From Gammaproteobacteria bacterium (lineage in GTDB: Bacteria > Pseudomonadota > Gammaproteobacteria > SZUA-229), in the NCBI GenBank assembly GCA_036567985.1, contig DATCTK010000089.1:29375-93374 (forward strand): 64,000 nt of DNA, written 5' to 3'. Position numbers and translations under genes: made by a program. How positions within the stretch are numbered: the stretch's first letter is position 1; every line of letters starts with the position of its first letter. This document shows, piece after piece, positions 517-25,258 of the stretch. Under the pieces are notes generated by a model. It was given only the letters and a program-made list of their open reading frames with translations. It was not told where the DNA came from and ran no database searches.

Positions 517-2958
517 TTAAAGACGTATCCGCCGCAGGCGCAACGCATTGCTAATAACGGATACTGAACTGAAACTCATCGCCGCGGCTGCAATAATCGG
601 CGACAGCAGCAGACCAAAAAACGGGTACAACACACCGGCCGCAATTGGCACACCGGCAGAATTGTAAGCAAAGGCAAAGAACAGGTTCTGGCGTATATTA
701 CGCATAGTGGCGCGGCTCAGCTGACGTGCCCGCACAATGCCACGTAGATCGCCTTTCACCAGAGTGATACCAGCACTTTCCATTGCCACATCGGCGCCGG
801 TACCCATGGCAATACCTACCTGTGCCTGAGCCAGTGCCGGAGCATCATTAATACCGTCACCGGCCATGGCGACGGTTTTACCGGCCGCCTGCAACTGTTT
901 GACAATGGTGGCTTTCTGATCCGGCAACACCTCGGCTTCGACGCGATCAATATGTAACTGACGGGCAACTGCTTCGGCCGTGATCTGGTTATCACCGGTC
1001 AACATGATCACCTCGATGCCCTCCTCATGCAGGTCTGCAATGGCAGAGGCGGTACTCTGTTTAATCGGATCGGCGACACCGATAAGACCCGCAGCCTCGC
1101 CGTCAGCGGCCAGCAACATCACCGTCTGCCCTTCTGCTCGTAAACTGTCCGCCTGCGCTGACAGCGAGTCGCTGTCCACACCCAGTGACTGCATTAATGC
1201 AATATTGCCCAGTGCCAGTGCATGACCATCCACCTTGCCTGTTACACCCATGCCGGTTTTTGCTTCGAAGTTGTCCACCGATGATAATGCCAGCTCACGC
1301 TGCTTCGCCCCTTGCACAATGGCATCAGCCAGCGGATGCTCGCTGCCGCGTTCAAGACTGGCGGCTAAACGCAGTACCGTGTTTTCATCCTCACCATTAA
1401 CTACGAGCACCTGCATTAATTGAGGCCGACCTTCGGTAAGGGTGCCGGTTTTATCCACCACCAGCGTATCTACTTTCTCCATCACTTCCAGGGCTTCTGC
1501 ATTTTTGATCAGCACACCTACCGTGGCGCCACGGCCGGTGCCCACCATAATGGACAAGGGCGTAGCAAGACCCAGTGCGCAGGGACAGGCGATGATCAAC
1601 ACGGCCACGGCATTCACCAGGGCATAGGCTAGCCGGGGTTCCGGCCCCCATAAAAACCAGACGACAAAAGCAAGGAAGGCAATGATCACCACCACCGGCA
1701 CAAAGTAACTTGATACCGTATCGGCGAGTTGCTGAATTGGTGCCCGCGACCGCTGTGCTTCCGCGACCATATTAACAATCTGCGACAGCAGCGTATCAGC
1801 CCCCACTTTTTCTGCCTGCATCAACAGGCTGCCGTTGCCATTGACCGTGGCACCAATCAGAGTCTCATTTTTATACTTTACTACCGGCACCGGCTCACCC
1901 GTAACCATGGATTCGTCTACATTGCTTTCGCCTTCAACAACACGGCCGTCAACCGGAATTTTTTCTCCCGGACGAATACGCAGAATATCGCCCACCTGAA
2001 CCTGGTCCAGCGGAATGTCTTCTTCCTCACCATTTTGTCGGTGTATGCGCGCCGTATTGGGTGCCAGCCCCAGCAACATCTTAATCGCCGTATTGGTACG
2101 ACTGCGGGCACGCAGCTCCAGTACCTGTCCCAGCAATACCAACGTGGTAATTACTGCCGCCGCTTCAAAGTACACTGGCACGGTGCCATCATCATGTCGC
2201 ATGATGAGCGGAAATATCTGCGGCAGCAGCAGTGCCACCATGCTGAAACTCCAGGCCACGAATACACCAAGACCGATCAGGGTAAACATGTTCAGGTTCC
2301 AGGTTTTGACCGACTGTACTGCACGCACGAAAAACGGCCAACCGCCCCACCACACAACCGGTGTTGCCAGTACACATTCGATCCATTGGACGGATTTCAT
2401 TGACAGTCCATCAGGTAGCAAGCCGGGAGCAAGATCCGCGATCATCGCCAGAATAAATACCGGTAATGCCAGTACAGTGCTAACCCAGAAACGCCGGCTC
2501 ATATCCACTAGTTCCGGGTTCTCATCTTCCAGTGTTATTGTTCTTGGCTCGAGCGCCATGCCGCATTTAGGACAGCTACCTGGATGATCCTGAACAATTT
2601 CAGGATGCATGGGACAGGTATATTCGGTTTTTGTTTTAAGTGCAGATCCGTCTTTAGGCTCCAGTGCCATACCACACTTCGGGCAGCTGCCTGGATGATC
2701 CTGGATGATTTCAGGATGCATGGGGCAGGTGTATTCCAGGTACTCGATAGAACAACTGCCATCATCGCATGCTTCAACGTGCTGGGCCTGCAGCGACTCA
2801 CCTGTGTATGCCTGAGGATGTTGCACAAATTTGTGCTTGCAGTGCTGGCTACAGAAGTACCACATCTCACCCTGGTAATTGGCATGGAATTCTGAATCCA
2901 GTGTTACCGACATGCCGCACACCGGATCTTTCAGTTCGGTTTTATTTTCCACATTCAT
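517..2958 (-). CDS. copA: copper-translocating P1B-type ATPase with an N-terminal YHS domain and two tandem CPMHP...CPKCGM heavy-metal-binding repeats
   Basis: 813 aa. Contains a YHS-like CGMSV...FCSQHC motif, two ~39-aa repeats of YTCPMHPEI(I/V)[16 protein letters not shown], a TGE motif, the CPC transmembrane motif, DKTGTLT and GDGINDAP. Confidence 0.93.
2545..2745. repeat. ~115-bp tandem duplication, two units, inside copA; it encodes the duplicated metal-binding module
   Basis: Two near-identical DNA units of the form ggctc(g/c)ag(c/t)gccat(g/a)cc(g/a)ca...cctggatgatcctg(a/g)a(c/t)(a/g)atttcaggatgcatggg(a/g)cagg... are directly visible. Confidence 0.8.
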
Positions 2959-3108
2959 GATATCTGGTCTCCTGCTTACCGGGATGACGTTCGTATGGCT
3001 GCTGCTACGGTTAAACGATTATCATCTTTAAATGACCATTGGTGATTGGATACTATTCAATAATTACCGTTTAAAAGCCCATTGTGATAAACACCATGCT
3101 CAAGGCAT

Positions 3109-3339
3109 CTACTTATTGATTTTCAATAGCCGTTTCAGCTCAACTTCATCTGGCTGTCCCCTGCACACCACTTCGTTATCCACCATCAGATTGGGCGAGT
3201 GACGAATATGGTAGCGCGACACAGTCTCCGGATGGTCCTCTGCGAACAAAACTTCATAGGCGACACCCAGATCCTTCAGTTCCTTTTCCATACTGGATCG
3301 ATGGCTACAATTTCGAGTTGCGATAATTTTAACGTTCAT
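3109..3339 (-). CDS. small glutaredoxin/thioredoxin-fold-like protein with a CxxS motif
   Basis: 76 aa, N-terminal KIIATRNCSHRS. The size and pattern resemble glutaredoxin-like proteins. No close family was recognised. Confidence 0.35.
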   Translation of the reverse strand: MNVKIIATRNCSHRSSMEKELKDLGVAYEVLFAEDHPETVSRYHIRHSPNLMVDNEVVCRGQPDEVELKRLLKINK

Positions 3340-3379
3340 AATTATTCCTCACATAAGATGTACAAATAGAAAAGTGGCA

Positions 3380-3820
3380 TCACTGATCAATCACAGGTTT
3401 GCTTTGCAGCTGTAATGCCGACATGTTCGATGACGCTCCCTGGTAAAGCACATCGATGACACGTCCGTCGTCGTCGAACACCAGAGTGTAAGTCCGCTCG
3501 AAATCCGCTAGCGGGCTCTCTATCACTGTTTTCTTTTCACCGCTGGGCGTCACATAGGTTTTAAGTGTGCGATGTTTACTCATGCCGTAGACCCAGCCTT
3601 CGCGACCGTTGGCCAGGCGAACTTCTTTATCTGCCTTGCCGTGATGACTCATCACCGCAAGTTTTTTGAGACTGCCTAGCGGATAGGTTTTTAGCACCTG
3701 TTCGGGGCTGGCTTCATAGGTAAACCGCATGGGCATTTTCATACCATCGGCCATTAGCGACAGTGAGCACAGCATGGTGAGCATGCCGGACAGAAATAAA
3801 ACACCTGTTTTGTTAAACAT
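3380..3820 (-). CDS. hypothetical periplasmic protein (signal peptide)
   Basis: 146 aa with an N-terminal hydrophobic signal-like segment. No recognisable catalytic motif. Confidence 0.4.
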   Translation of the reverse strand: MFNKTGVLFLSGMLTMLCSLSLMADGMKMPMRFTYEASPEQVLKTYPLGSLKKLAVMSHHGKADKEVRLANGREGWVYGMSKHRTLKTYVTPSGEKKTVIESPLADFERTYTLVFDDDGRVIDVLYQGASSNMSALQLQSKPVIDQ

Positions 3821-3888
3821 GATTACATATCCTCATTAGATATTAATAACCGAGAAGACCGGGTCGTGAAGACCCGGACACCAGTGGT

Positions 3889-4371
3889 TTACTTCTTTTC
3901 AAGCTGTTCCATATGCTTGAGCATCTGCTGCATCATGTCCTGCATCATGCCCATGCGCTTTTCCATCATGGCACTGCGATCCGACATGCCACCCATCATC
4001 ATTCCGCCCTGTCCTTTGCCCATGCCCATTCCGTGGCTATCACCCTTGCCATCACTCTGGATCTTGGACATCGTGCCTTTATTATCCATCATCATGCCCT
4101 TGCCATCGGGATTCGGCATCATGCCACGCATTTTTTCCATCATACCCATCATGTCTTTCATGCTTTGCATATGATTATTCATATACTGTTTTTTCTTGCT
4201 GCTGTTATTCTCCTTTTGCATTTTCATTGCCATATCTTCGGCTTTTTCCATCTGCATATTGAACTTGTCGCCCATCATTTTCATATCACCCATATTCTGT
4301 TGAGCATAGACGCTGGTTATGGATGCAGTAGCCAGAAGCAGTGTGGTTACTAATATATATTTTTTCATCAT
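3889..4371 (-). CDS. methionine-rich periplasmic protein, a candidate Cu(I)-binding protein
   Basis: 160 aa. Signal peptide, then many MxxM / MMG / MGMGKGQGGMMMGG motifs. RBS GGAGAC lies upstream. It sits in the copper island. Confidence 0.6.
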   Translation of the reverse strand: MMKKYILVTTLLLATASITSVYAQQNMGDMKMMGDKFNMQMEKAEDMAMKMQKENNSSKKKQYMNNHMQSMKDMMGMMEKMRGMMPNPDGKGMMMDNKGTMSKIQSDGKGDSHGMGMGKGQGGMMMGGMSDRSAMMEKRMGMMQDMMQQMLKHMEQLEKK

Positions 4372-4560
4372 TAAGTCTCCTGTGAAATGTTGATTTAAAA
4401 CTCATGTGGCTCTAAACAATTCATCCATAAATTCTCAGAGCAGGAACAGAAACAGGATAAATTTCTATTTACCCTGTTATTTATTTTCAATGAATCATGC
4501 ATCATCGAAAATAGCGTCACATCTATGTGTCACAACATGCCTTATGTAATCAGTAATTCC

Positions 4561-4833
4561 TTAATTACTGTTTTGTAAAAACGTCAGAATATCCCGTGTC
4601 TCCTGCCCGGTGAGGCCACCGCGCACACGCATATGAAACACAGTAGTGATCCATTGATCGTCACGTAATTCATTTGAATCACGTAAATTATGACAACGCA
4701 TACAGTTATCAGACCAGGCTTTGGCGCCTCGCGCCATATCACCCTGCTCGGGAAAGTCCCCTCCCATCGCAGTCGTGCTGATTAACAAAAAGCCAATGGT
4801 TGCTGTATATATTTCTGGAAATATTTTTTTCAT
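4561..4833 (-). CDS. small c-type cytochrome
   Basis: 90 aa with a signal peptide and a CMRCH haem-binding motif. Confidence 0.6.
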   Translation of the reverse strand: MKKIFPEIYTATIGFLLISTTAMGGDFPEQGDMARGAKAWSDNCMRCHNLRDSNELRDDQWITTVFHMRVRGGLTGQETRDILTFLQNSN

Positions 4834-4844
4834 AGCAATTACTC

Positions 4845-6020
4845 CTAAAATCCGTAGCTAAGTTGTACTAGCCAGCGGTCATCACTTTCCAGGCCAGAGT
4901 TGGGGTTATCATTACTTTCGTAAGCCAGCTTGCCTATAAAATTATTGGTAAACAGCCGATTCAGGCCCAGTGTCAAATGCTCCTGATCCGCACTGGCATG
5001 AGGCGAATCAAATTCACCAGTACGTATCACGGCCTCGTAGTCATCATTGAAAAATTTGTAGGCCAGCTGAAGATACCAGGTCGACCATTCAGCGGCATCC
5101 GATGCATTACTGGTTGCTGCTTCAGCAACCTCGGTTTTTACATATTCACCGCGAACGTCCAACATCGTATTTCGCCAGGAAAAATCCATCCCATTAACAT
5201 CATAATCACGGGTTGGCTCATTGCTTAATGACGGACCCTCTACACCTTCGTACTCAGTTACTCTGGCCTGGCCGGTTAAGAGTGATACACCGATTTCAAG
5301 TGTCGAAATCGGCAGTACCGAAAAGCGTCCGCCGACGACTTTTTCACCGTCCCTGTCACGTCCAAATGCTTCAGCCTCTACACCGTCCAGCTCTACTTCA
5401 CCGTCTTCGACCTCGGCTTTCAACTCAGGACCGTTACCCATGTAGATCGCATAAGTGGCTTTCATGCTACCCAGATAAAAACCACCACGGGCTTGCACAC
5501 CCAGGTCAGATACCGGCGCTGCACCGTCATGACCAAACCCAGCTGGTGCTGATGGCAATTTGTTTATCCAGCACGGATGCAAGTTTTGTCTAAACTGACC
5601 TATTGGGCTTAAAAACTTACCAGCCACCAGCACCAGATAGTCATTTACAAACCAGTCAAGGGTCAGATATTCCAGTGCCGTTTCTGTCTCACCGTCTTCA
5701 CTCGTTGTCAGCTCAAGCTCCGATTCCAGCATCACCAAATCACGGTACTGATAATGAAAAATTGGCGCGAATGTACCCACATTAAAACTGCCATCATCTC
5801 CGCTGGCATCACTATTCACATAGCCCACATCAGCGTAGCCAGCCATGTGAATCAGTGTATTTGGATCACGCCATTCATTTGCTGCAGCCATTTCTGTTTT
5901 GAGTCGTTCAACGTCCTGTTTCAACTGCTCCAGCTCACTTGCTGCAAATCCTGTCGAATTCACGGACATAAGTGACAGCGAACACATTGTCGCCAGATAT
6001 AGTTTTTTTGATTTTTTCAT
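4845..6020 (-). CDS. outer-membrane beta-barrel, porin-like protein
   Basis: 391 aa. Signal peptide, alternating amphipathic segments and a C-terminal ...LSYGF aromatic terminus typical of OMPs. Confidence 0.55.
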   Translation of the reverse strand: MKKSKKLYLATMCSLSLMSVNSTGFAASELEQLKQDVERLKTEMAAANEWRDPNTLIHMAGYADVGYVNSDASGDDGSFNVGTFAPIFHYQYRDLVMLESELELTTSEDGETETALEYLTLDWFVNDYLVLVAGKFLSPIGQFRQNLHPCWINKLPSAPAGFGHDGAAPVSDLGVQARGGFYLGSMKATYAIYMGNGPELKAEVEDGEVELDGVEAEAFGRDRDGEKVVGGRFSVLPISTLEIGVSLLTGQARVTEYEGVEGPSLSNEPTRDYDVNGMDFSWRNTMLDVRGEYVKTEVAEAATSNASDAAEWSTWYLQLAYKFFNDDYEAVIRTGEFDSPHASADQEHLTLGLNRLFTNNFIGKLAYESNDNPNSGLESDDRWLVQLSYGF

Positions 6021-6273
6021 GAGTTATTCCTCATATTTACATTTGGTAATATTTGTAACGCTAGTGAACCGCCGCGCACTACTAAATCCGGTACGCAGGA
6101 GATAGGAGGTCGCAGGATAGAAACTGGAGTCGGTGAATCATGACGCTGATGCACGAACGGAATACTGAAAGAAATCATATTACCTGAGAAGTCAAAAACG
6201 TTAACAGGTGGAACAAGCATACTATGCAGCATGTCGCAGGATTCGCTGCTGCTATCACAACAGCACTGTTTAT

Positions 6274-6525
6274 CTATACATGATGCGCACTGCTCAGCAC
6301 TACCTGAGCGTATCGATAACGCTCCATCATGATGAGCAGTTTTTTTATTATGTGTGCGTGCTTTTCACTTATGCTGTCGACGAGGACGACTTCCGGCTCA
6401 CCGCATTGTTGTTCCTGACTGGCATACATCGTCTCCATTGGCGCTAATATTAAAACCAGCGTCACTGCAGTCGATACAATTTTTTGTGCCTGTCTATTCA
6501 ATTTATTATCCATGTTGTAACGCAA
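6274..6525 (-). CDS. hypothetical small protein; doubtful, no clear RBS
   Basis: ORF only. Between the porin gene and cusA. The ORF-track start uses TTG; an internal ATG (MDNK...) has no Shine-Dalgarno sequence. Confidence 0.15.
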   Translation of the reverse strand: MRYNMDNKLNRQAQKIVSTAVTLVLILAPMETMYASQEQQCGEPEVVLVDSISEKHAHIIKKLLIMMERYRYAQVVLSSAHHV

Positions 6526-6657
6526 TTACATACAAATAAAACGGGGCAACTTATATGTCGATCGTCCTCAACCTATACAATAGTTGAGCAACCCAACATT
6601 AACTCCATGGTTTATATCAGCAGTTATGAACCTGGTTACCAGTACGCATTGTTCACA

Positions 6658-9600
6658 TCACGCTTTTAGTGAACGTGTACGCCACAGAAAATACACCGCT
6701 GGCAACACCAGCAACGTCAGAATCACTGCGCTCAACATTCCACCCACCATCGGCGCCGCGATGCGGCTCATCACCTCAGACCCGGTACCGCTGCCGAACA
6801 TAATCGGTAGCAAACCAGCAATAATGGCACTGGCGGTCATCATCACTGGACGTACGCGCATACCCGCACCGTGCAGCACTGCATGGCGTAACGTTTCCAG
6901 CTTCGGCGCAACACCTTTCGTTTCGTATTCGGATTGCATCTGAGCATAAGCCTGGTTGAGATAAACCAGCATGATCACGCCGATCTCTACCGCCACACCG
7001 GCCAGCGCGATAAAGCCCACGCCCACCGCCACCGAGAAGTTGTAGCCAAGCAGGTACATCAGCCAGATGGCACCGATCATTGCCAGTGGCAAGGTGCCCA
7101 TGATGATGGCGACTTCAGCAAACCGGCGAAAGTTCATGTAGAGCAGCACAATAATGATGACCAGTGTCAGTGGCACCACATAGGTGAGCTTTTCTTTAGC
7201 TCGCAACATGTATTCGTACTGACCGGACCAGGTCACGGAATAGCCTGTTGGGAGTTCCAGTTGCTGTTTGACTGTTATCATGGCCTGCTCGACATAACTG
7301 CCCACATCTACGCCGTCAATATCAACAAAGGTCCAGCCGTTCAGTCGGGCGTTCTCACTCTTGATGGCCGGTGGACCGCCATCCACATAAACATTTGCCA
7401 CGTCGTCGAGCGCAATACGCTGCCCTTTTGGCGTAACGATGGGCAACAATGCCAGCTGTTCCGGAGAGTCACGGTAATCCTGTGGGTAACGCAGATTGAT
7501 TGGATAACGCTCAAGCCCCTCAATGGTCTGCGATACGTTCATACCGCCAATAGCCGTGGCCACCACCTGCTGCACATCGGCGATATTAAGGCCATAACGC
7601 GCCGCCTGTTCACGCTGTACATCCACCTTAATGTAGCGCCCACCGGCTACCCGTTCAGAATAAACCGAGGCCGTGCCGGGTACATCCTTAAGAATCTGTT
7701 CCAGTCGCTGACCAATTTTCTGAATTTCTTGCAGATCCTCACCCGCCACCTTGATACCCACCGGGGTCTTGATACCGGTAGCCAGCATGTCGATACGGGT
7801 TTTAATCGGCATCACCCATGCATTGGTCAGGCCGGGAAATTTCACCAGTGCATCCAGTTCCTTTTTAAGCTTGTCGGTGGTCATGCCATCGCGCCACTGG
7901 TCCTGTGGCTTAAGTTGAATAAACGTCTCTATCATGGTCAGTGGTGCCGGGTCGGTGGCTGTTTCGGCGCGACCAATCTTGCCGAACACGGTTTTTACTT
8001 CTGGCACCGTAGCAATCAGTTTGTCAGTCTGTTGCAGAAGCTCACGCGCCTTACCAATGGACAGACCCGGGTAGGTGGTGGGCATGTACATCAGGTCGCC
8101 TTCATCCAGACTGGGGATAAACTCACTACCGATCTTGTCCACCGGCCAGAAGCCTGCCAGTGTCAGCACCAATGCAACGACCAGGGCCATTTTAGGAAAG
8201 CGCAACACTGTTTTCAGTGCAGGCATGTAGAGCCCAATCAACAGACGATTGACAGGGTTTTTGTGTTCTGGCAGCACCTTGCCGCGAATGAAATAGCCCA
8301 TCAACACCGGCACCAGCGTCACCGCCAGTGCCGCACTTGCTGCCATGGCATAGGTTTTGGTAAACGCGAGCGGACTGAACATCCGACCTTCCTGCGCTTC
8401 CAGCGTGAACACCGGCACGAAGCTGACGGTGATAATCAGCAAACTGAAGAACAGCGCCGGCCCGACTTCCGCCGCCGATTCGGCGACAATCCTCCAGCGG
8501 TTTTCCGCCGTCAATGGCGTACGCTCCATGTGCTTGTGCATGTTCTCGATCATCACGATGGCACCATCGATCATCGCGCCGATGGCAATCGCAATACCAC
8601 CCAGTGACATGATATTGGCATTCAGGCCCTGCCAGTGCATCACAATAAAGGCAGTCAGAATACCCACCGGCAGACTGATAATCGCCACCAGTGACGAACG
8701 TATGTGAAACAGAAACACCATGCATACCAGCGCCACCACTGCGAACTCTTCCAGCAACTTGTGCCACAGGTTTTCCACCGCACGCTCGATCAATCCAGAT
8801 CGATCATAGACGGTGACGATTTCCACGCCCTCAGGTAAACCTGCCTTGAGTTTTTCCAGTTTGTTCTTAACACCATCAATGGTTCTCTGCGCATTCTCAC
8901 CAAAGCGCATCACCACGATACCGCCAACGGTTTCACCTTCACCATTAAGTTCGGCAATACCGCGACGCATCTGCGGCCCCAGTTCAATCTCTGCCAGATC
9001 CTTGAGCAACAAGGGAATACCATTGTCATTCACACCCAGGGGAATGTTGGCCAGGTCGTCAATGCCCTGAATATAACCACTGACCCGTACCATGTACTCG
9101 GCTTCCGCCATTTCCACTACCGAAGCACCCATTTCCTGGTTACCGCGCTGGATCGCCATCTGAATATGCGAGAGAGGAACACCGAACGCACGCAGTTTTT
9201 CCGGGTTCACTTTCACCTGATACTGCTTGACCATGCCGCCGAGCGCCGAGACTTCGGAAACCCCGGGTACTGTCTGCAGCTCGTATTTCAGGAACCAGTC
9301 CTGCAGACTGCGCAGCTGGCTGATGTCATGCTTGCCGGTACGGTCCACCAGTGCGTAGAGATAGACCCAACCCACACCCGTGGCATCCGGCCCCAGTTGT
9401 GGCCGGGCACTGGGCGGCAACGTGGGGGCCACCTGTGACAGGTATTCCAGCACCCGCGAACGCGCCCAGTAGGTGTCGGTATTCTCATCGAATATGACGT
9501 ACACATAGGAATCCCCGAAGAAGGAGTAGCCGCGCACGGTAACCGCACCCGGCACCGACAACATGGCAGTAGTCAGTGGATAGGTAACCTGATCTTCCAC

Positions 9601-16051: not shown

Positions 16052-16744
16052 ATGCGATTACTGCTGGTGGAAGACGAAATTAAAACTGGCGACTACTTGC
16101 GACAAGGTCTAACTGAAGCCGGCTTCCAGGCAACCCTGGTTAGAAATGGACTAGATGGTCACCACCTGGCAATGACCGAGTCATTCGATCTGATTGTGCT
16201 GGATGTCATGCTGCCCGACGTGGATGGCTGGCGCATAGTGCAGTCACTGAGGGAAGCCGAAAACCAGACACCCGTGTTGTTTCTGACCGCGCGTGACAGC
16301 GTGGATGATCGCGTCAAGGGGCTGGAGTTAGGAGCGGATGACTATCTGGTAAAGCCCTTTGCTTTTGCTGAGTTACTGGCGCGAGTGCGCACTCTGTTGC
16401 GTCGAGGATCGGCCCCACCTCTGACGGATCAGCTCAGAGTGGCCAACCTCACCCTGGATTTACCCAGGCATCAAGTGACACGCGCCGGCCGGAAAATCAG
16501 CCTCAGTCATAAGGAATTCTGCCTACTGGAACTGCTGGTGCGACGTCAGGGTGAAGTGTTGCCACGTTCACTGATCGCCTCTCAGGTGTGGGACATGAAT
16601 TTTGACTCCGATACCAACGTGATCGACGTCGCCATCCGTCGCCTACGCGCCAAAATTGACGACAACTTCAAACCCAGGCTGATCCATACGGTACGCGGCA
16701 TGGGTTACAAGCTCGACGCAGAAGCTGACAATGAAAACAACTGA
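16052..16744 (+). CDS. cusR: OmpR-family heavy-metal response regulator
   Basis: 230 aa. REC domain (LLVEDE..., [14 protein letters not shown]), then a winged-helix output domain. It pairs with the downstream kinase. Confidence 0.88.
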
Positions 16745-18137
16745 GCGTCACCCACTTTCACTGACCGCCAGGGTGATGATTTTTGTCGCACTGGCCATCG
16801 GTATCAGCATGGTGCTGATTGGCCATCTGGTATTGAATGCTGTTGAGCGCCATTTCACCGAACAGGACGCGGACGAGCTGAACGTGATTAACCAGGCTGT
16901 GGTGGAGACCTTGCAGAGTATGGATGACCCACTGCAGCAACCAGAAGCTCTGTCTAATGCGGTCTCGGGACACCACGGCGTTTATTTTCAGGTATTGAAC
17001 AACCGTGACCGGGTTATCTTCAGTACGCCAGGCGCAGACTTCGCACAATCCGCCGCAGGATTATCCGCGGTTCAGAAAATTCACGCTGGAAACGTGAATA
17101 TCTGGCACACAGATAGAACAACCTACCGGGGCGTCGTCACACAGTTTGTCAGTGGCGATCAGGAATACCGAATTACCACAGCCATCGACATGAACTTTCA
17201 CCTGCATTTTCTGCAGGAATTTCGCCGCAGCCTGTGGCTTATTATGATACTCACTGGCGGCGTGACTCTGCTGGCAGCATGGTTCGGCGTGCATCAGGGA
17301 CACGCACCTTTACGAGGTCTATCGGACAAACTGCGTAATATTCAGGCAGATCGTCTACATGTGCGGCTTGACCTCCGCAGCCTGCCCCTGGAGCTACAGG
17401 ATATGGCCACAGCGTTTAATCAGATGATCGGCCGACTGGAAGACAGCTTCACGCGGCTGTCACATTTTTCCGCTGACATTGCCCACGAACTGCGAACCCC
17501 ACTGACGAATCTCATCACCCAGACCCAGGTTGCATTGGGTAAAGCAAGAACACTGGACGAGTACCGTGAGCTCCTCTACTCCAATCTGGAGGAACAGGAG
17601 CGTCTGGCCAAGATGGTCAATGATATGCTCTGGCTGGCCAAGAACGACCATGGCCTTATCAAACCGGAGCTGGTAGCCCTGGATCTGTCTAGTGAGCTTA
17701 AGAAACTGTTCGAGTTTTTTGAAGCGCTAGTAGCGGAAAAGCATATTACCCTGTCCCTGGAAGGACATGCGCCAGCGGTAAGCGGTGATCGCGCGATGAT
17801 GCGTCGGGCGATCTCAAACCTGCTGTCAAATGCCATCCGTCACACCCCGGCAGGTGAGCAGATACAGGTGCGCCTAAATCTAACAAGCAATAATATGGTG
17901 TCGCTGAGCGTGGCCAACCCGGGTGCCGAAATACCCGCAGAGCAGCTGAAACACATATTTGACCGCTTTTACCGTGCAGACCCGTCAAGAACACGCCAGA
18001 GTGAGGGTGCTGGACTCGGCTTAGCGATTGTTCGCTCCATTGTTGAGGCACACGGTGGACGTGTCGATGCAAGATCGAATCGACACATCACCACATTCAC
18101 AATCACGCTGCCCAGCTCAAAAAGTGAAAGTAACTGA
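16731..18137 (+). CDS. cusS: heavy-metal sensor histidine kinase
   Basis: 468 aa. Two TM segments flank a periplasmic domain, then HAMP, an H-box ([12 protein letters not shown]) and a HATPase domain. It overlaps cusR by 14 nt. Confidence 0.88.
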
Positions 18138-18301
18138 ATATTAAATTTTGTTCTTGTTAGGCTGACCACATTATCACCACCCGTTATTCTCTGTAAGAAT
18201 TGTGCAATGTGCAGCCAATCGCAAATAGCACTTATACATCACTTTAAAGACAAGCCACGTAATAAGTTATTGTTTATATTGTAAATATTTGATTATTTTT
18301 T

Positions 18302-18328
18302 GAGGTTCAAGTCCTCTTCTCGGCACCA
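18302..18328 (+). other. tRNA 3'-end fragment (T-arm, acceptor and CCA), a putative genomic-island attachment-site remnant
   Basis: GAGGTTCAAGTCCTCTTCTCGGCACCA reads as a T-loop GGTTCAAGTCC plus acceptor 3' strand and CCA. The upstream sequence is AT-rich and cannot form the rest of a tRNA. It sits in a 940-bp non-coding gap between the copper island and the TA/helicase module. Confidence 0.5.
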
Positions 18329-19049
18329 TCACTTCTTAACTCACTGATTCCATTAAAAACAGTAGCTTACGACACTCTTTTGGGTACATTCGTGGGATAC
18401 ACCAGCCGTTTTTTAGAATCACCCTTTGTGAGTAAAAAATCCAGTTTAGCGTTTCATGGCAACTCATCGATTCACGGCATAACGAGTACTTCGCCCTCCA
18501 CCGGGCAATTGCCTGAGACAGCATTTACTCAGCAGATCAGCCCGGTCACGTGTGGTCGTTGCCTTAGTCACATCAGCAATGCTCTGGTATTTTCAGACAT
18601 TAATCCCTGGTAGCAAGGCATCTCCTTCAGCTACCAGCAGTCAATTGAGTACTTTTATCTGGCGCGCGCTTAAAACAGTCTGACCAGGCTATTGCCAGAA
18701 ATCTTTTTATCGATTACACGTTGTATCGACTCTGCCCTCGCCGAATCGCTTTCGTTAATACGGGTAAAAACCCGGCAAGCCGCTGTGTACAGCGAATCGT
18801 TACAGACTCCCGTCTGGGCTTATGTTCATTGAGCTGATAATTAAAATCAGGCTAACTGGATGCTTGCCATAGCTACATAACAGCCTGCTAACGGTTGATT
18901 TGGGCGATTGGACGATTAACAGCTTTTAATCGACTCATAAGCAAATAAGCGAGCTCTATAAAACCTGTCATTAATTTTATAATCACCAAAAGAGTCAAAT
19001 ATGATCTGAGGCTCAATTATATTGATTCTCCTGTATATTTTAGTTGAAA

Positions 19050-19068
19050 TAGTCCCATTATGGGACTA
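19050..19068. promoter_or_regulatory. perfect 19-bp palindrome, a candidate HigA operator just upstream of higB
   Basis: TAGTCCCAT-T-ATGGGACTA ends 12 bp before the higB ATG. Confidence 0.5.
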
Positions 19069-19079
19069 TCATCAACCTT

Positions 19080-19385
19080 ATGAGAATCATCGCCTTATCA
19101 ACACTGAAGGCTTTTTGGGAAAGACATCCAGAGTATATGGATGCTAAAGAACCAACTTTAGCCTGGTACCGCCATACATTAGCTGCCGACTGGAGTGCAC
19201 CTGCTGATGTTAAACAGGACTTCAAAAATGCCAGCATCCTTAAAGATGGGCGTGTAGTTTTCAATATTGCGGGGAATAAATATCGTCTGGTCGTGTGGAT
19301 CAACTATGCCTATCGAGTGACTTACATCCGGTTCATCGGTACCCATGCGCAATATGAAAAATTCGTCAGGAACGAATTTTCATGA
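19080..19385 (+). CDS. higB: type II toxin-antitoxin system toxin, HigB family (RelE/ParE superfamily)
   Basis: 101 aa. NIAGNKYRLVVWINYAYRVTYIRFIGTHAQYEKF resembles E. coli HigB (…NVGGNELRVVAMVFF…CYIREVMTHKEYD). The toxin gene comes first, as in higBA. Confidence 0.75.
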   Translation: MRIIALSTLKAFWERHPEYMDAKEPTLAWYRHTLAADWSAPADVKQDFKNASILKDGRVVFNIAGNKYRLVVWINYAYRVTYIRFIGTHAQYEKFVRNEFS

Positions 19386-19468
19386 GCAGAGCGAGCCCGA
19401 AGGGAGAGGCTCATGGACGAGCCGAATACAAAATTGATGTACAAACTATTTAATTGCCGGAGGAAACT

Positions 19469-19837
19469 ATGGACATCAAACCAATTAAAACTGATGCTGA
19501 CTACCGAGCGGCATTAAAAGACATTGAAGGTCTGATGACAGCAGGTGTTGACACACCTGAAGGGGAAAAGCTCGACGTTATGGCCACCCTCATTGAGGCC
19601 TATGAAGCGAAGCATTTTCCAATGGATTTACCCGACCCTGTTGAAGCCATCAAATTTGAGATGGAGCGTAAAGGCTTAACAGTAAAAGACCTTGAGCCCA
19701 TGATTGGTAAAAGCAATCGTGTGTATGAGATTCTCAACCATAAGCGCTCACTGACGCTGAAAATGATCTGGAAGCTACATAAAGGATTGGGCATTCCTGC
19801 GGAGTCGTTGATTAAACCACCGCAAGCGCATGCTTAA
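19469..19837 (+). CDS. higA: HigA antitoxin, an XRE-type HTH protein
   Basis: Start trimmed to the ATG preceded by a GGAGGAAACT RBS. C-terminal HTH (LTVKDLEPMIGKSNRVYEILNHKRSLTLKMIWKLHKGLGIP). Confidence 0.75.
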   Translation: MDIKPIKTDADYRAALKDIEGLMTAGVDTPEGEKLDVMATLIEAYEAKHFPMDLPDPVEAIKFEMERKGLTVKDLEPMIGKSNRVYEILNHKRSLTLKMIWKLHKGLGIPAESLIKPPQAHA

Positions 19838-22199
19838 ACAAAAGCTAAATAGTAAACACTTTAAAAGCATTCGCGAAATAGAGACGCGGCTCGCAGAACT
19901 TGAAGACGAGAAGAAACAACTTTTAGACCTTAGAAAGCAACTGCAAGAACCCTCGGCAATTGCACCCGAATCGAGTTCATATTCACCGGAACAAAAGATA
20001 GCCATATTCAGAAGCCTGTTTCGCGGACGCACCGACATTTTTGCTAGTCGCTGGGTAAATAAACAAGGTCGTAGTGGTTACTCTGTCGCCTGCAATAATG
20101 AGTGGATACAGGGAATCTGCCACAAGCCCCGCGTTAAATGTCAGGATTGTAATCATCGACAATTCACGGAACTTACGGATCAGACAATTTACCGACACTT
20201 AGCTGGGCATCAGGTAGTTGGACTCTACCCATTAATGCACGACAACACATGCTTCTTGCTTGCTACAGATTTTGATAAGGGGCAGTGGCAGGAAGAAGTA
20301 AAAGCAATGTCAACAGCCTGCCTGGCCTTTGAAATACCACATACAATTGAGATTTCACGCTCAGGCAATGGTGCTCACCTTTGGATATTTTTCAAAGAAA
20401 AAGTACCTGCCAAAGAGGCCAGACTACTGGGTTTCGGTCTGCTCGACAAAACCATGGAAATCTATCCAAACCTGTCTTTTGAGTCCTATGATCGCCTATT
20501 CCCAAATCAGGATATTTTGCCCGAAGGTGGGTTTGGCAATTTAATCGCACTGCCTCTCCAACGAGAAGCGAGACTTGCAGGCAATAGCACTTTCGTTGAT
20601 AGCAACCTCAATGTCATTAAAGATCAGTGGCAGCACCTTTCTCAAATTGAACCTCTATCTCATAAAAACCTGAGCAAACTGCTCACCCAGGTTTCACCAA
20701 CCTCAGAACTTTTCGATGAACAAAAAGTTATCGAGATAAGGCCACCCTGGGAAATAACCGCCAGGGAAAAACCGCTCGAACTGAACAACCTTCCTGAAAA
20801 AGTCACAATAACACTCGCAAATCATATTTATTTTGATTTAAGCGAAATCCCGAGCACCTTGGCAGTAAGATTACGACGTCTCGCCAGCTTTTCCAACCCC
20901 GTTTTCTTTAAAACCCAGGCACTGCGTTTTTCAACACATGGTATTCCACGATTTATTTCCTGTGCTCGAATAGAGCAAGGCTACCTGTCAGTACCTCGAG
21001 GTTGCTTAGATGATGCGCTTAAGCTATTGAGCGAAAATCAGATAGAAGTCCTATTAGACGACAAGCGAGAGTTCGGAGCCAAACTCAAAAACATTAAATC
21101 GCAAGTTAAACTCAGAAAGAACCAACAAGCCGCTGTGAAAGCCATGAGCAAACACGACTCAGGTATCCTTCACGCCCCTACAGCGTTTGGAAAAACTGTC
21201 ACAGCCATTGGCATGATTACCAGGCGAAAAACCAATACATTGATTCTGGTTCACAGTAGACAATTGCTTGATCAATGGAAAGAGCGATTAAAAACATTTC
21301 TTCCAGGCATCGACATCGGAGTCATTGGTGGAGGCAAGAAAAAGCCAACTGGTATAATCGACATAGCTACTTATCAAAGCCTCATCAATTAAAATGAAAA
21401 CTCAGTATCCGGACTTGTGCAAGACTATGGTCATGTAATCGTTGATGAGTGCCACCACGTTTCAGCTCCTCGCTTTGAAATGGTATTGAACGAAGTCAGG
21501 GCCAGATACGTACTTGGCCTGACCGCAACACCGGAAAGGCAGGATGGACACCAGAAAATTATATTTATGGCGACTGGCCCCATTCGGTACAAAGTAAAAA
21601 ACACCCAAAAAGAAAATTTCGAACAACAGGTCATTGTTCATCAACTTTATGATATACCTCCAGGACGGTTAGTCCACTCAGATGAACGTCCAAAAATATC
21701 AGATGCTTATCAATGGATCATGGAGAGTGATGCACGCACAGGTCGAATTATTGACGATGTCCTCGTTTGTGTTCAGCAATCCAGACATCCCATAGTGCTG
21801 ACTGAACGCAGAGAACATGCCGAAACGATTAACACAATTCTACTGGAGAAAGGTATAGACTCAGTCGTCCTTAAAGGTGCTATGCGTGCTGGTGAACGAA
21901 AAGCTGTTGAGGATAAATTACCTACTGCTCAAGTTGTGGTTGCTACGGGTAAGTATGTAGGCGAGGGATTTGATCTACCAAGGTTAGACACCTTGTTCCT
22001 GGCCATGCCCATTGCCTGGAAAGGATCATTAGCGCAATATGCAGGCCGTATACACCGGGAATCTGATGGCAAAGAATGCGTGACCATACATGATTATGTT
22101 GACTGCTCGTTACCCATACTGCAGCGCATGTTCAACAAGCGTGAGAAAATCTATAAAGCGATGGGTTACCAGATTGATTTCAATGAACAGGCATCCTGA
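19830..22199 (+). pseudogene. primase-polymerase (AEP-like) N-terminal domain fused to an SF2 DEAD/DEAH-type helicase. The reading frame is interrupted by one in-frame TAA at 21390-21392.
   Basis: The N-terminal half has a Cys cluster (CNNEW...CHKPRVKCQDCNH), a DxD (LLATDFDKG), SGNGAHLWIFF (AEP motif II-like) and LPLQ. The helicase part has motif I (APTAFGKT), Ia, II (DECHH) and III (TATPER), plus a C-terminal RecA-like domain (QYAGRIHR). The ORFs 19830-21392 and 21417-22199 are in the same frame and are separated only by TAA. The ATG overlaps the higA stop by 8 nt. Confidence 0.7.
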
Positions 22200-22540
22200 A
22201 GCGGCCAAAAGTTAAACGAGCTTCTGCTAACTTGTGATAATTTAGACTCCGAACCTCCTGCGTAAGCATTAGCCTGCACGAGCATTTCAATGCACTAGCT
22301 GGGGCAGAATAGATTGCCTGTAAGCTGAAACCACGACCTTCCCACCACCAATAACAAGCCACCCATTATTTTGACTGACTTTGTTTGGTGACAATGGTGC
22401 AGCTACCCCCCTTAATGCTTCAAAATAATTCTCCTGGTACGAATTGAAACAATTAGCACTTAATATATCACTTGAAACACGAACCATGTAACACGAATCA
22501 ATTAAAATATGCCTGATTTTTGAAAGGCCCTGGCAAACAA

Positions 22541-25258
22541 TTAAGGTGCTGATGACTCCACCAGGTCTTTAATACACCTCAGCACATCGTCCGAAGTAAA
22601 TGGCTTATGTAACAGGTTTTCATACAGCTCATCCTGCGCATACTCGGCCTTGATTGTGTCGCTATAACCACTGACCAGCTGGATTTTAATCTGCGGGAAT
22701 TGCTGTTGCACCTGCCGAGCCAGTTCGTGGCCATCCATTTCCGGCATAATGATGTCACTGAACAGAATATCCACCGGCTGTGTTTCCAGTAATTCAAGCG
22801 CATCCCGGCCATTGGCTGCAGTATGTACCTGGTAGCCGCTTTGCGTAAGAATTTCCGCGGTCATTGCACGCAGTGCTGGTTCGTCATCAACCACCAGGAT
22901 GGATTCGTTTCCACGATAACGATTCTCACCTCCTCGATCCGATGCGATTGCATCAGGATTACCGGCAAGCTGTCGCGGCAGGTACAATGCAATTCGGGTG
23001 CCTTCCCCGGGTGTTGAGTCCACGGTTATAAAACCACCATTGGTTTGCACCAGGCCATACACCTGGCTCAAGCCCAGTCCCGCACCGAAATTGCCTTTGG
23101 AGGTAAAGAACGGATCAAAAATCTTTTCCTGCACGTCCTTGCTCATACCAATGCCGGTATCGGTAAAGCTGATCATCACATATTCACCCGATTCAGCCTG
23201 GGCATATTCACGACTGCCCCTGGACACCGAGACATTTCCTGTTGCAATGGTCAGCTCGCCCCTGTTTTCTATGGCATGCATGGCGTTGATACTGATATTA
23301 ACGATTGCATCTTCCAGGTCCCCTGCATTAATCCACACCGGCCAGAGATCTTCCTGTAACTGGTATTGCAGGTTAATGCGTACGGTGAGTACTTTTTCCA
23401 GCATATCCTGTCGATCAAGTAACAACACATTGATATTCAGGGTTTCGTTTTCAGTTTGCTGTGGCCGTGAGAATGACAGCAGTTTTCGTGTCAGGCTGGC
23501 GCCACGTTCACCGGCATGATGAATTTCATTGATATATTTCTGTAATTTATCATCCTCTGCCAGCGAATCCTGAATCAGCTCGCTGTAACCGAGAATAACC
23601 CCCAGCATATTATTAAAGTCGTGTGCGATGCCACCGGTGAGTTTACCCAGTGCATCCATTTTCTGTGTGCGTCGCAGGGTTTCTTCATGCTGTTTGCGTT
23701 CGGTAATATCAATTGAAATACCGCAAACCGCATAGATATTGCCCGCCTCATCCGTTAACGGGAACCTGGTGCTGGCGTAGGTATGCAGGCCATCTTCCTG
23801 CAGTGCAGTTTCTTCCACTTGCAGCACACTGCCACTTGAGAAAACCGCAAGATCATTTTTACGCGCTTCCTCTGCAACGTCTCGCGCAAACACGTCATAT
23901 AAATTTTTTCCGATGATATCCTCAGGCTGCATATTAAATGAACGCAGAAGCTGCTGGTTAACATAGCTGAAATCCCCCTGACGGTCCTTTACATAAATAA
24001 CGGCCGGTGAGTTATCCATAATCGAGCGCAACAGTCGTTCACTTTGTGCTGCACTCTGTCGTAAACGGTATTTTTCCGTAACATCATTGAATATCAGCAC
24101 CATACCGAGAATTTCATTATCCTGATTACGAATTGGCGCGGCGGAATCCGATATATGATACTGCGCACCATCACGGGAAATCAGTGTGGTGTTATTGCTC
24201 AGAAAAACTGTCCTGCCGGTTTTAATCACCTTATCAATCGGGTTCTCAATTATCTGTTGCGTTTCCGCATTGATAATTTTAAAAATATCGGTAATCGGTT
24301 TACCTGTCGCCTCATGCAGCGGCCAGCCGGTGATTGTTTGCGCTACCGGGTTCATGCGTGTTACCCGCCCGCTGGCATCAGTGGCAATCACCGCGTCACC
24401 GATACTGTCCAGGGTTACCCGCAGGTCTTCTTCCTGCTGCGCCAGTTCGCGATGCTGATCCCGTAGCTGTTCGGTGAGATCGGTCAGGTTACGGTTCTGG
24501 TTCTGTAAACGCGCAGCCATGGTGTCAAAACCGCTTGATATTTTACTGAACTCATCTGCCCCTGGCAGCTGTATACGCGCATCGTAATTACCGTTGGAAA
24601 ATGCATTAATACCCTTAATAATCGACTTGATACGGTTACGCATACTGAAATACAGCAACAGGAAACCCGCCAGCAGAATGCCGAAGTGAATCAATGTGAT
24701 CTGGATAATTTCCTGTTGCTGCCGGTAGTAGAGTTCGCTTAATGTATGCTGCAAATTGTAGCTGGAAAACAGATAGGCATTGACGTAATCACCTTTACCC
24801 GGCGCGTGGGTGACATTATCCAGTGGATAAAGCCCAATAATCATCTCAGCATCATGGTTAATATCTATCGACCCCAGATAACCCGCACCATCCCTCTCGA
24901 CTATCAACTGCTGCACGTCTGGCAAACCATTGACTGACACATCACGGTATTCGATTGAAGATGAATACTGAATCACGCCATGTTCATCGATAATGGCGAT
25001 CAGTTCCATGGTGGGGTCACTGCTGATTCGTGAAACTTCGCGGTGGATGGCATTGAAATCACCACGCAAATTAAAATCATTTACCGTGCCCTGCAATTGC
25101 ACCATGCGTTGCCTTACCCGGCTGAGCTCGGATTTTTTTACGTCCTCGATCTGTTTCTGAAACACCATGGCATAGGTGTAATAGGACACACTGGCACTGG
25201 TTATCAGGGCGATAACCATAAACCAGATAAGTATGGGAAAGCGTGAGAAAAAATTCAT
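22541..25258 (-). CDS. hybrid sensor histidine kinase / response regulator, with a periplasmic sensor domain, HAMP, two PAS domains, HisKA-HATPase and a C-terminal REC
   Basis: 905 aa. Two TM segments bracket a ~150-aa periplasmic region. PAS signatures (DSIGDAVIATDASGRVTRMNPVAQTITGW; DNSPAVIYVKDRQGDFSYVN). H-box HDFNNMLGVILGY. G-boxes. REC (ILVVDDEPA...DIIMPEMDG). Confidence 0.85.
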   Translation of the reverse strand: MNFFSRFPILIWFMVIALITSASVSYYTYAMVFQKQIEDVKKSELSRVRQRMVQLQGTVNDFNLRGDFNAIHREVSRISSDPTMELIAIIDEHGVIQYSSSIEYRDVSVNGLPDVQQLIVERDGAGYLGSIDINHDAEMIIGLYPLDNVTHAPGKGDYVNAYLFSSYNLQHTLSELYYRQQQEIIQITLIHFGILLAGFLLLYFSMRNRIKSIIKGINAFSNGNYDARIQLPGADEFSKISSGFDTMAARLQNQNRNLTDLTEQLRDQHRELAQQEEDLRVTLDSIGDAVIATDASGRVTRMNPVAQTITGWPLHEATGKPITDIFKIINAETQQIIENPIDKVIKTGRTVFLSNNTTLISRDGAQYHISDSAAPIRNQDNEILGMVLIFNDVTEKYRLRQSAAQSERLLRSIMDNSPAVIYVKDRQGDFSYVNQQLLRSFNMQPEDIIGKNLYDVFARDVAEEARKNDLAVFSSGSVLQVEETALQEDGLHTYASTRFPLTDEAGNIYAVCGISIDITERKQHEETLRRTQKMDALGKLTGGIAHDFNNMLGVILGYSELIQDSLAEDDKLQKYINEIHHAGERGASLTRKLLSFSRPQQTENETLNINVLLLDRQDMLEKVLTVRINLQYQLQEDLWPVWINAGDLEDAIVNISINAMHAIENRGELTIATGNVSVSRGSREYAQAESGEYVMISFTDTGIGMSKDVQEKIFDPFFTSKGNFGAGLGLSQVYGLVQTNGGFITVDSTPGEGTRIALYLPRQLAGNPDAIASDRGGENRYRGNESILVVDDEPALRAMTAEILTQSGYQVHTAANGRDALELLETQPVDILFSDIIMPEMDGHELARQVQQQFPQIKIQLVSGYSDTIKAEYAQDELYENLLHKPFTSDDVLRCIKDLVESSAP

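Follow-up and report, generated by a model that had tools for sequence, protein, structure and literature searches.

Three genes at an island remnant

We analyzed a stretch of 64,000 nucleotides (hereafter the window, whose numbering is used throughout) from contig DATCTK010000089.1, part of a third-party metagenome-assembled genome (MAG) of an uncultured, unclassified gammaproteobacterium at NCBI. Its genes of interest are three neighbors on the forward strand: higB (19080..19385), higA (19469..19837), and a large gene (19830..22199) for a fusion of an archaeo-eukaryotic primase (AEP) of the primase-polymerase (PrimPol) kind with an XPB-like helicase of superfamily 2 (SF2). The large gene is now a pseudogene. 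Its frame of 789 codons, which an earlier note on this DNA had counted as 780, consists of an open reading frame (ORF) of 520 aa at 19830-21392 and the same frame continuing through 21393-22199, and its sole break is one TAA. Comparison with related loci indicates that the three genes are a horizontally mobile operon, and that the large gene was most likely inactivated by a genuine and very recent nonsense mutation.

The two small genes form a type II toxin-antitoxin pair in the toxin-first order of HigBA. HigB, a RelE-fold toxin of 101 aa, matches Pfam HigB_toxin at 8e-30 (103 bits) and is named HigB family toxin by NCBI (HEY9202519). HigA, an antitoxin of 122 aa with a helix-turn-helix (HTH), matches Pfam HTH_3 at 2e-4, and its exact sequence lies within a 1,354-member cluster named HigA. 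The start of higA is an ATG behind GGAGG; a TTG at 19454, which gives a longer ORF call, is unused by orthologs.

Domains of the large gene product

By profile and structure matches, the N-terminal half is an AEP, and the earlier assignment was right. The catalytic domain (19992..20678, aa 55-283), delimited by Pfam PF22548 and by invariant columns, matches PF22548 (AEP-TOTE) at 1e-98, with 330 bits against a cut-off of 27 and over profile positions 1-229 of 230. Other matches in this half were a weak one to Pfam DNA_primase_S, a sub-threshold one to the NCBIfam CRISPR-associated PrimPol (7e-26; the NCBIfam match to XPB was likewise sub-threshold), one to the PADLOC model of the CAS-associated PrimPol (1e-91), and one between aa 115-288 and the PDB structures of the CRISPR-associated PrimPol (CAPP) of Marinitoga (7nqd/7nqf/7p9j; E=7e-11). 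Motif I is DFD, which provides D147 and D149 (aa 147-149), and motif II is SGNGAH (aa 178-183, within SGNGAHLWIFF at 178-188); D221 is a candidate for the acidic residue of motif III. D147/D149, SGNGAH, and D221 were invariant in 12 and in 49 orthologs. Inside the domain lies a cluster of four cysteines, C88-x8-C97-x6-C104-x2-C107 (nt 20091-20150), whose first spacing had been misread as C-x7-C.

The C-terminal half (20787..22196, about aa 320-789, from PDB, Foldseek, and Pfam matches) is by its matches a complete SF2 helicase, as had been proposed, and specifically an XPB/Rad25-like one. Its motifs are GKT (aa 454-456, 21189-21197), DECHH (539-543, 21444-21458), TATP (565-568), and QYAGRIHR (736-743), all invariant or nearly so among the 49 orthologs; like the AEP motifs, and like the other sequence features that the earlier note listed, they lie where it had placed them. 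Pfam ResIII/DEAD and Helicase_C matches fall on either side of the stop, and the PDB entries 6p4f and 5tnu, both XPB, match this half at 9e-26. We used an AlphaFold model, built from an alignment of the 49 orthologs (sequences at least 72% identical), only for the XPB-like fold. Its top Foldseek matches were all XPB (6e-18, with 480-490 aligned columns), and this number of columns against a 435-aa XPB suggests that the N-terminal domain of XPB is covered, in a model whose mean pLDDT is only 65. The sequence from motif III on reads TATPERQDG, and its ERQD may stand in the place of the RED motif of XPB.

Domains of replicative-ring helicases (SF3, DnaB, MCM, DUF927, DUF3987) gave no match in Pfam, NCBIfam, or PDB, where only SF2 families were found. 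Nor was there a Pfam match at E<=0.01 to a PriCT or winged-helix origin-recognition domain, with no separate search of the linker at aa 290-420.

A large family and a mobile operon

The earlier note regarded this architecture as unusual, which it is not. NCBI and Pfam already name the very large family to which it belongs, and most members of that family share the AEP-XPB-helicase fusion. Zabrady et al. 2021 (PMC8211822) described a 'CAPP-Helicase' type, noted it as the commonest non-CRISPR CAPP form, and reported that the non-CRISPR homologs are mostly AEP plus helicase, carried in mobile elements. Our protein search returned about 8,000 homologs, the nearest of them at 99, 95, and 94% identity and all three of 789 aa with no stop. 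A search with the AEP domain gave 7,233 clusters at 50% identity, mostly of proteins of ~800 or ~960 aa. Among isolates, intact copies were present on Acinetobacter plasmids, on pCP127 of E. coli EC93, in Vibrio ordalii ATCC 33509, and in Marinomonas and Alteromonas strains.

For gene context, we sampled 80 loci from species-representative genomes, plus metagenome contigs and plasmids (L numbers below refer to these loci and contigs). The first counts cover 83 loci; counts of gene overlap cover 93, as seven loci on plasmids and the three nearest contigs from metagenomes were added. Orthologs of the large gene keep higBA, as the earlier note had asked to be checked: an ortholog of higA (88-95% identical) stands directly upstream in 57 of the 83 loci, 49 of which also have higB. 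DNA similarity is limited to the stretch from ~19013/19044 to ~22168/22278, that is, from 35-65 nt 5' of higB to 0-80 nt 3' of the large gene. The three genes therefore travel as a unit.

The stop of higA overlaps the start of the large gene by 8 nt in ATGCTTAA (19830-19837). This overlap, already pointed out in the earlier note, recurs: in 30 of the 93 loci, the gene ahead of the AEP gene shares 8 nt with its start (ATGnnTRA), and in another 25 it ends 25 nt before that start. Plasmid homologs of only 46% identity keep the 8-nt overlap with an unrelated gene of 181-187 aa.

The in-frame stop codon

The TAA (21390..21392, forward strand) replaces Lys521 (AAA); it falls in the first RecA domain, past motif Ia and ahead of motif II. 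The metagenomic contig L084, which encodes the protein of 99% identity, shares 99.8% of its DNA with window positions 18763-22457; it has A at 21390 (codon AAA), and its 268 codons 3' of that position are identical to ours base for base. The stop is a single A>T nonsense change of Lys521, with no other lesion in the comparison with L084 and no further decay 3' of it, in keeping with the earlier description of exactly one TAA in an otherwise open frame. In the seven orthologs read at this position, the residue is K in six and Q in P0051, and the column is at least 90% conserved among 49 orthologs. Intact copies are under purifying selection, since the dN/dS of the family is 0.05-0.21.

Recent inactivation, a sequencing error, and read-through had been named as the possible explanations of the TAA. 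These were the right ones, and the first is the best supported. A contig from a sister strain (L105, Ga0209692_10000461; 95.5% identical) retains higB (98%) and higA (99%) and has lost everything between codon ~166 of the large gene and the right border of the island, corresponding to window positions 20327-22490, with an 8-nt filler, ATAGATAC, at the deletion junction. In other strains of the same species, the cassette is missing beside the histidine kinase gene. Because such strains lack the whole cassette, the large gene is clearly dispensable, and it is in flux in this species. That the sister strain deleted most of the same gene, and that the island also holds the remnant of a Fic gene (see below), make it probable that the inactivation is genuine. 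NCBI assigns no protein accession to the large gene between HEY9202520 and HEY9202521: the accessions of HigB and HigA are consecutive, and since the next belongs to the histidine kinase beyond the large gene, the pipeline called no protein there.

It is improbable, in our judgment, that the TAA is an assembly or base-call artifact, or a minority allele in the MAG, and that the gene of the organism is intact and functional. Such an error would agree with the origin of the window in a third-party MAG, with a lesion of one base, with the DNA identity of all following codons to an intact contig, and with the occurrence of intact copies at 99.8% identity in another sample. Yet a short-read consensus rarely has substitution errors, and three of the four other substitutions relative to L084 are non-synonymous. 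The independent deletion in the sister strain that kept higBA, the second pseudogene in the island, and the same-species strains with no cassette at all also count against an error.

A stop that is tolerated, through programmed read-through of the TAA or through reassembly of the two halves (520 aa, and 260 aa from a GTG at 21417), is very unlikely. The frame is otherwise open and the GTG lies just 25 nt 3' of the stop, which would suit either route. Against them, Lys or Gln in all seven orthologs argues that there is no conserved recoding, no Shine-Dalgarno sequence precedes the GTG, and the break parts Walker A from DECHH inside one RecA domain. TAA is also the strongest bacterial stop codon. 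The allele in the window could yield only a product of 520 aa, comprising the AEP and helicase motifs I-Ia, and any ATPase-dependent function would be lost. The higBA pair may persist in this genome because it is addictive.

A promoter-like site under putative HigA control

A promoter-like site (19044..19072, forward strand) precedes higB, with a -35 of TTGAAA, a 17-nt spacer, and a -10 of TATCAT (10 of 12 consensus matches). It ends 7 nt 5' of the higB ATG, its position is conserved in a 12-locus alignment, and translation of higB may be leaderless. Between the -35 and the -10 lies the palindrome AGTCCCA-TTA-TGGGACT (AGTCCCAnnnTGGGACT, 19051..19067). Neither half-site varies among the 12 aligned loci, which include an Acinetobacter plasmid and cassettes of only ~70% DNA identity. 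Because type II toxin-antitoxin operons are generally autoregulated, we infer that this palindrome is the HigA operator, with HigA as the probable repressor of the operon.

The natural reading would be that a HigA-repressed promoter drives all three genes. One promoter with a palindromic spacer would transcribe the operon, and the large gene would be translated by termination-reinitiation at the ATGCTTAA overlap. Its level would be set by toxin-antitoxin autoregulation, with repression in the steady state and release when the antitoxin is lost or has not yet been made.

The alignment with L084 also revealed a 71-nt segment (19357..19427, forward strand) that this nearest relative lacks. It replaces the last 8 residues of HigB, lengthens the higB-higA spacer, and brings a 12-bp hairpin; its fold is no better than those of shuffled sequences (z = -0.77). 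The segment occurs at the identical site in the cassettes of L030, L034, L036, L043, and L061, whose DNA is only ~70% identical, and is missing from L035 and L087, close relatives of these cassettes. A 20-nt probe taken from it found 11 metagenome contigs, 10 of them with an adjoining tblastn match to HigB and one (L100) with no protein match. A multi-copy miniature inverted-repeat transposable element was not supported, as no copy was found outside the present cassette family among the probe contigs.

Exchangeable toxin-antitoxin pairs

Where HigBA is absent, the same place is filled in the same orientation by AbiEi/AbiEii (with three types of AbiEi), by TacA/TacT, by an RHH/MazF pair, or by an HTH gene paired with a HigB of the other Pfam family. 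At greater distance, HipA, Fic, and RhuM genes occur upstream of the large gene as well, and a plasmid of Acinetobacter lwoffii has a Xre/MbcA/ParS antitoxin gene upstream. At L020 (1684-1761) and L021 (5874-5951), TacA/TacT stands in place of HigBA, and the last ~25 codons of higA are left together with the ATGnnTAA overlap. This remnant resembles the footprint of a module exchange by recombination inside higA.

Since the pairs have unrelated antitoxin folds, direct control of the toxins by the enzyme at the protein level is unlikely. The pairs share an antitoxin-repressed promoter and addiction, and we therefore propose these as their contribution. Our searches of the literature found no description of AEP-helicase genes linked to toxin-antitoxin pairs in this way.

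One could go further and suppose that the AEP-XPB helicase and the toxin-antitoxin pair ahead of it, of whatever type, make up an anti-phage or anti-plasmid system, of a class that is very widespread and has gone unrecognized. The conserved PrimPol-helicase would recognize and act on invading DNA, and the pair would serve as a gate, an abortive effector, or both. A class of this kind would account for the presence of at least five unrelated toxin families in one upstream slot and for the retention of the 8-nt coupling. We regard the proposal as tentative and on the whole unlikely.

Borders and flanks of the island

The island remnant measures ~4.2 kb (about 18222-22457) and has a GC content of 0.43-0.45 against 0.50-0.55 around it. 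It contains only higB, higA, the AEP-helicase gene, and the Fic remnant. The latter (18467..18703, reverse strand) is a decayed C-terminal fragment of a gene of the DUF4172-Fic family with three in-frame stops. In tblastn it is 44-47% identical over ~78 aa to residues ~300-380 of the Fic proteins at L058, L059, and L050, which match Pfam Fic and DUF4172.

The left end is formed by an AT-rich, att-like segment (18222..18301, forward strand), 85-86% identical to L001 8609-8705 and L085 4003-4112. Directly after it, on the same strand, the sequence reads as the orphan 3' end of a tRNA-Leu-like gene (GAGGTTCAAGTCCTCTTCTCGGCACCA, 18302..18328), comprising the T-arm, the acceptor strand, a discriminator A, and CCA; the same fragment is found 3' of the cassette in L085 and L086. 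Its likeness to E. coli leuX suggests a tRNA-Leu gene as the source. ARAGORN and Rfam found no complete tRNA or structured RNA in the window, and the fragment is taken as a probable remnant of the attachment site of an integrative element.

Whereas the window has the att-like segment and the tRNA end on the left side of its cassette, L001, L085, and L086 have both on the right (downstream) side. A diverged right-hand copy of the repeat (22450..22500, forward strand), mostly on the chromosomal side, was located by three-way alignment and junction mapping; it is weak, with ~75% identity, and was not recovered by the repeat search. These segments look like attachment-site debris of tandem or rearranged integrative elements.

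Beyond the large gene, a conserved non-coding cassette tail (22200..22457, forward strand) is 85-86% identical to L001, L085, and L086 and 100% identical to L084 up to 22456. The right junction of the island is at 22457/22458, and from 22458 on the cassette-free strains L094-L097 are 100% identical to the window. The flanking genes are, by their NCBI names, a CusS-type heavy-metal sensor kinase on the left (16731-18137) and a PAS-domain hybrid histidine kinase on the right (22541-25258), and the spot between them is a variable site in the species. Other strains carry transposases of insertion sequences instead of the cassette at the kinase-side junction.

Genomic settings in other hosts

A tmRNA gene lies 0.3-3.5 kb upstream of higB in the same orientation at nine loci (L004, L005, L007, L009-L012, L016, and L021). 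The distance is within about 1 kb in eight of the nine; at L016 an integrase and small genes lie between. These loci belong to genera of several orders, and most have no integrase between ssrA and higB. In the group of cassettes with ~70% identity, the order is rph, yicC, a P4-type integrase, a 125-aa ORF, higBA, and AEP-helicase, usually followed by type I restriction-modification genes. The rph-yicC-integrase order is the layout of yicC-integrated islands (PMC8978831). Two ORFs of this subgroup have no Pfam or PADLOC match, namely the 125-aa ORF upstream (L030 4627-5004 and 14 other loci), which overlaps the 3' end of the integrase gene, and a 241-aa ORF downstream (L030 8847-9572 and 15 other loci). 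Across the loci, the downstream neighbors (n=148) vary, and the kinds best represented are type I restriction-modification genes and additional toxin-antitoxin genes. No conserved downstream partner was found among them; the 241-aa protein recurs only in its one subgroup (16 loci).

Plasmids are a second setting. Matches of near-full length, covering at least 80% of the protein, were present in 98 plasmid records, and half of these plasmids are conjugative or mobilizable. The AEP domain was present in 120 plasmid records from four phyla, almost all annotated only as DEAD/DEAH box helicase. Distant homologs on plasmids adjoin ParB/DUF932 genes of the leading-region kind, a resolvase with a Tn3 remnant, or trios of recombinases. 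On Rhizobium and Sulfitobacter plasmids (L089 8343-11802 and L092 6321-9744), a homolog of 45% identity is followed by a trio of tandem tyrosine recombinase genes on the opposite strand, and a tyrosine recombinase likewise follows the homolog on an Azotobacter plasmid. A phage origin was rejected, as no phage record held more than the helicase half, at ~25% identity.

The ortholog on pCP127 of E. coli EC93 (L109) is 45% identical over 777 aa. In the module there (589-8299), alpA-yfjI-yfjJ-like genes are followed by the AEP-helicase gene and then by ShosT/ShosA. In CP4-57 of K-12 (L113), the slot after yfjJ holds AbpAB, and yfjI is the P4-alpha-like gene of the element itself. The slot after yfjJ thus behaves as a defense hotspot of CP4-57-like elements. 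YfjK/AbpB of E. coli K-12 was considered as a homolog and rejected, with a BLASTP E of 0.047 and only the Walker A region aligned. The settings as a whole (islands, plasmids, and clusters of defense or toxin-antitoxin genes) agree with the defense or mobile-element module that the earlier note had suggested.

Comparison with named systems

The closest solved and biochemically characterized relative of the AEP domain is CAPP of Marinitoga piezophila (MpCAPP; 7nqd/7nqf, 7e-11). The present gene differs in that its helicase is XPB-like and in that it is the last gene of a toxin-antitoxin operon. CRISPR linkage of the locus was ruled out on three counts. No array of identical repeats was found, as every 22-mer of the 64-kb window occurs at most twice; no cas genes are among the immediate neighbors, the other ORFs of the window not having been scanned for them; and the NCBIfam equivalog PrimPol_Msp scores 90.9 bits, far below its cut-off of 200.

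The name of Pfam PF22548 points to TOTE systems, which the AEP domain resembles in matching the 'AEP-TOTE' family end to end; NCBI names orthologs accordingly. TOTE stands for TPR, OB, TBP, Effector (Aravind, Iyer and Burroughs 2022, cited after bioRxiv 10.1101/2025.09.15.676423). Unlike such a system, the island has no TPR-OB (cold-shock/S1) fusion gene, and its flanks are the CusS and PAS histidine kinase genes. A TBP gene was found neither in the island nor among the 25 commonest families of the 148 downstream neighbors, and a protein with TPR alone in L007 is not recurrent. Literature searches for TOTE together with primase found nothing.

Neither a true TOTE conflict system nor a CAPP module for CRISPR adaptation is, in our view, anything but a highly improbable identity for the locus. 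The names given by Pfam and NCBI, and the fact that the best PADLOC and NCBIfam matches are CRISPR-associated PrimPols, speak for one or the other. Set against these names are the partner genes: TPR-OB and TBP genes are absent from the island and neither recurs downstream, and the repeat count and PrimPol_Msp score given above do not fit a CRISPR module. The lack of the defining partner genes refutes both identities for this locus.

PD-lambda-2 (Vassallo et al. 2022, PMC9519451) is likewise a three-gene operon headed by a HigB-like gene, and its components are the best PADLOC matches of the present pair: HigB matches PD-Lambda-2_A at 6e-34, and HigA matches the N-terminal part of PD-Lambda-2_B at 6e-42 (profile positions 1-123 of 402). 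In PD-lambda-2, component B is a HigA-like HTH with a C-terminal peptidase, and component C is related to the P4 antitoxin (PMC9519451). Membership was rejected, as the present HigA, of 122 aa, lacks a peptidase domain and an AEP-helicase gene takes the third position.

Three further comparisons concern the helicase and its carriers. XPB/Rad25 proteins (archaeal XPB-Bax1 and XPB of TFIIH) are the best sequence and fold matches for aa ~320-789 and share all SF2 motifs; in contrast to them, the present helicase is fused to a PrimPol, has no Bax1-like nuclease partner, and is carried by a mobile element instead of belonging to a repair or transcription machine. Ppol-Hel of Thermus thermophilus ICETh2 (Garcia-Quintans et al. 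2020, PMC7693054) likewise combines a PrimPol with a helicase on an element integrated at a tRNA gene, and some relatives have a toxin-antitoxin pair; its Ppol and Hel are separate genes, and the likeness noted here is one of layout. P4 alpha, PrimPol-SF3, and the DUF927/DUF3987 fusions (Kazlauskas et al. 2018, PMC5862659) join AEP and helicase in one polypeptide too and likewise sit on islands and plasmids beside integrases. They differ in having hexameric replicative helicases where the present protein has an SF2 XPB-like one, and the present family coexists with the P4-alpha-like yfjI in a CP4-57-like module. By its sequence, the locus is a member of the AEP-TOTE clade of Pfam, and it is similar to the 'CAPP-Helicase' type. 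The copy in the window is an inactivated member of a known, uncharacterized kind, and not TOTE, CAPP, or PD-lambda-2.

Defense cargo or element replication

The best explanation of the locus as a whole is that of a mobile three-gene operon in an island remnant, with a large gene that recently became a pseudogene, whose expression was set by the toxin-antitoxin pair and which served as defense cargo. We give this combined explanation a probability of roughly 0.55. Its functional part, that the intact fusion protein would be a DNA-targeting accessory (conflict or defense) enzyme carried as cargo by integrative islands and plasmids, we hold at about even odds. With its XPB-type motor, the protein would open double-stranded DNA or move along it, and with its CAPP-like PrimPol it would carry out priming and extension on the strand thus exposed, the target being foreign DNA that is entering or replicating. 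A gated promoter and addiction would come from the toxin-antitoxin pair, which may also cause growth arrest.

Several observations favor a defense role. The three genes move between islands with no other gene of the element, and on pCP127 the ortholog sits in the slot of AbpAB, beside ShosTA. The motor is XPB-like and not a ring helicase, and an origin-binding domain was not found with Pfam. AbiE neighbors are abortive-infection modules, and the downstream flanks are variable and rich in type I restriction-modification and toxin-antitoxin genes. The nearest characterized AEP acts in CRISPR adaptation. The PrimPol of Thermus ICETh2 is dispensable for replication of its element and lowers the uptake of environmental DNA 100- to 1000-fold (PMC7693054).

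Other points weigh against this explanation. PADLOC, which the earlier note had proposed to consult, matched the large gene through its CAS-associated PrimPol model, and no validated defense-system model there covers it. The TOTE core genes are absent from the island in the window and not recurrent downstream. Cassettes of ~70% identity adjoin an integrase, in what appears to be island backbone instead of variable cargo, and the position of distant plasmid homologs beside ParB/DUF932 or recombinase genes suits element maintenance. Toxin-antitoxin pairs accumulate in islands anyway and are complete alone, and nothing requires the enzyme to act with them. The sampled loci are not phylogenetically independent, and the AlphaFold model is mediocre. 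The function of the AEP-helicase family is so far a predicted one, and the TAA, read from a MAG consensus, is only probably present in the cells.

The main competitor, which we think doubtful, is that the fusion protein serves its carrier elements as the enzyme of their establishment or replication. The element would enter as single-stranded or excised circular DNA, and with no repressor yet present, the promoter would fire (zygotic induction). The PrimPol-helicase would then prime complementary-strand or transient replication, after which the toxin-antitoxin pair would shut the operon and stabilize the element. The usual replicases of mobile elements in bacteria and archaea are fusions of this kind, of PrimPol with helicase (PMC5862659; PMC11724360), and the toxin-antitoxin operator gives exactly the off-after-entry logic that these steps need. 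The settings described above fit as well: cassettes directly after P4-type integrases in yicC- and ssrA-borne islands, the 98 plasmid records, half of them conjugative or mobilizable, the distant homologs beside ParB/DUF932 genes, a resolvase with a Tn3 remnant, and recombinase trios, and the occurrence of the full-length gene in no phage.

The protein itself fits replication less well. Its helicase is of the monomeric, XPB-like SF2 type and not an SF3, DnaB, or MCM replicative ring, and no origin-binding, PriCT, or winged-helix domain was detected with Pfam. The three genes move among islands that differ in their integrases and attachment sites, with no other element gene, and the CP4-57-like module of pCP127 already has the P4-alpha-like yfjI while the AEP-helicase gene sits in the defense slot. 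In Thermus, the ICE PrimPol is not needed for ICE replication. GI21, an island of the yicC type, was reported to be non-replicating, though it is a different island (PMC8978831). We therefore favor conflict or defense cargo over element replication or establishment.

Significance

As a dead copy in a decaying island, already counted among the pseudogenes by the annotation pipeline, the gene matters little for this genome. The lead is at the level of the family, which is very large, strongly conserved, and mobile, and which joins two activities central to DNA transactions. The family is already catalogued; as far as the searchable literature shows, functional tests of it are absent. What is striking is the syntax, in which the AEP-helicase is the last and often translationally coupled gene of operons headed by many differing toxin-antitoxin pairs, and this is the sole part worth following up. 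The E. coli copy occupies a slot otherwise used by proven defense systems. Should the coupling prove functional, bacterial immunity or the establishment of mobile elements would gain a mechanism based on a polymerase, and toxin-antitoxin operators would have a defined regulatory job.

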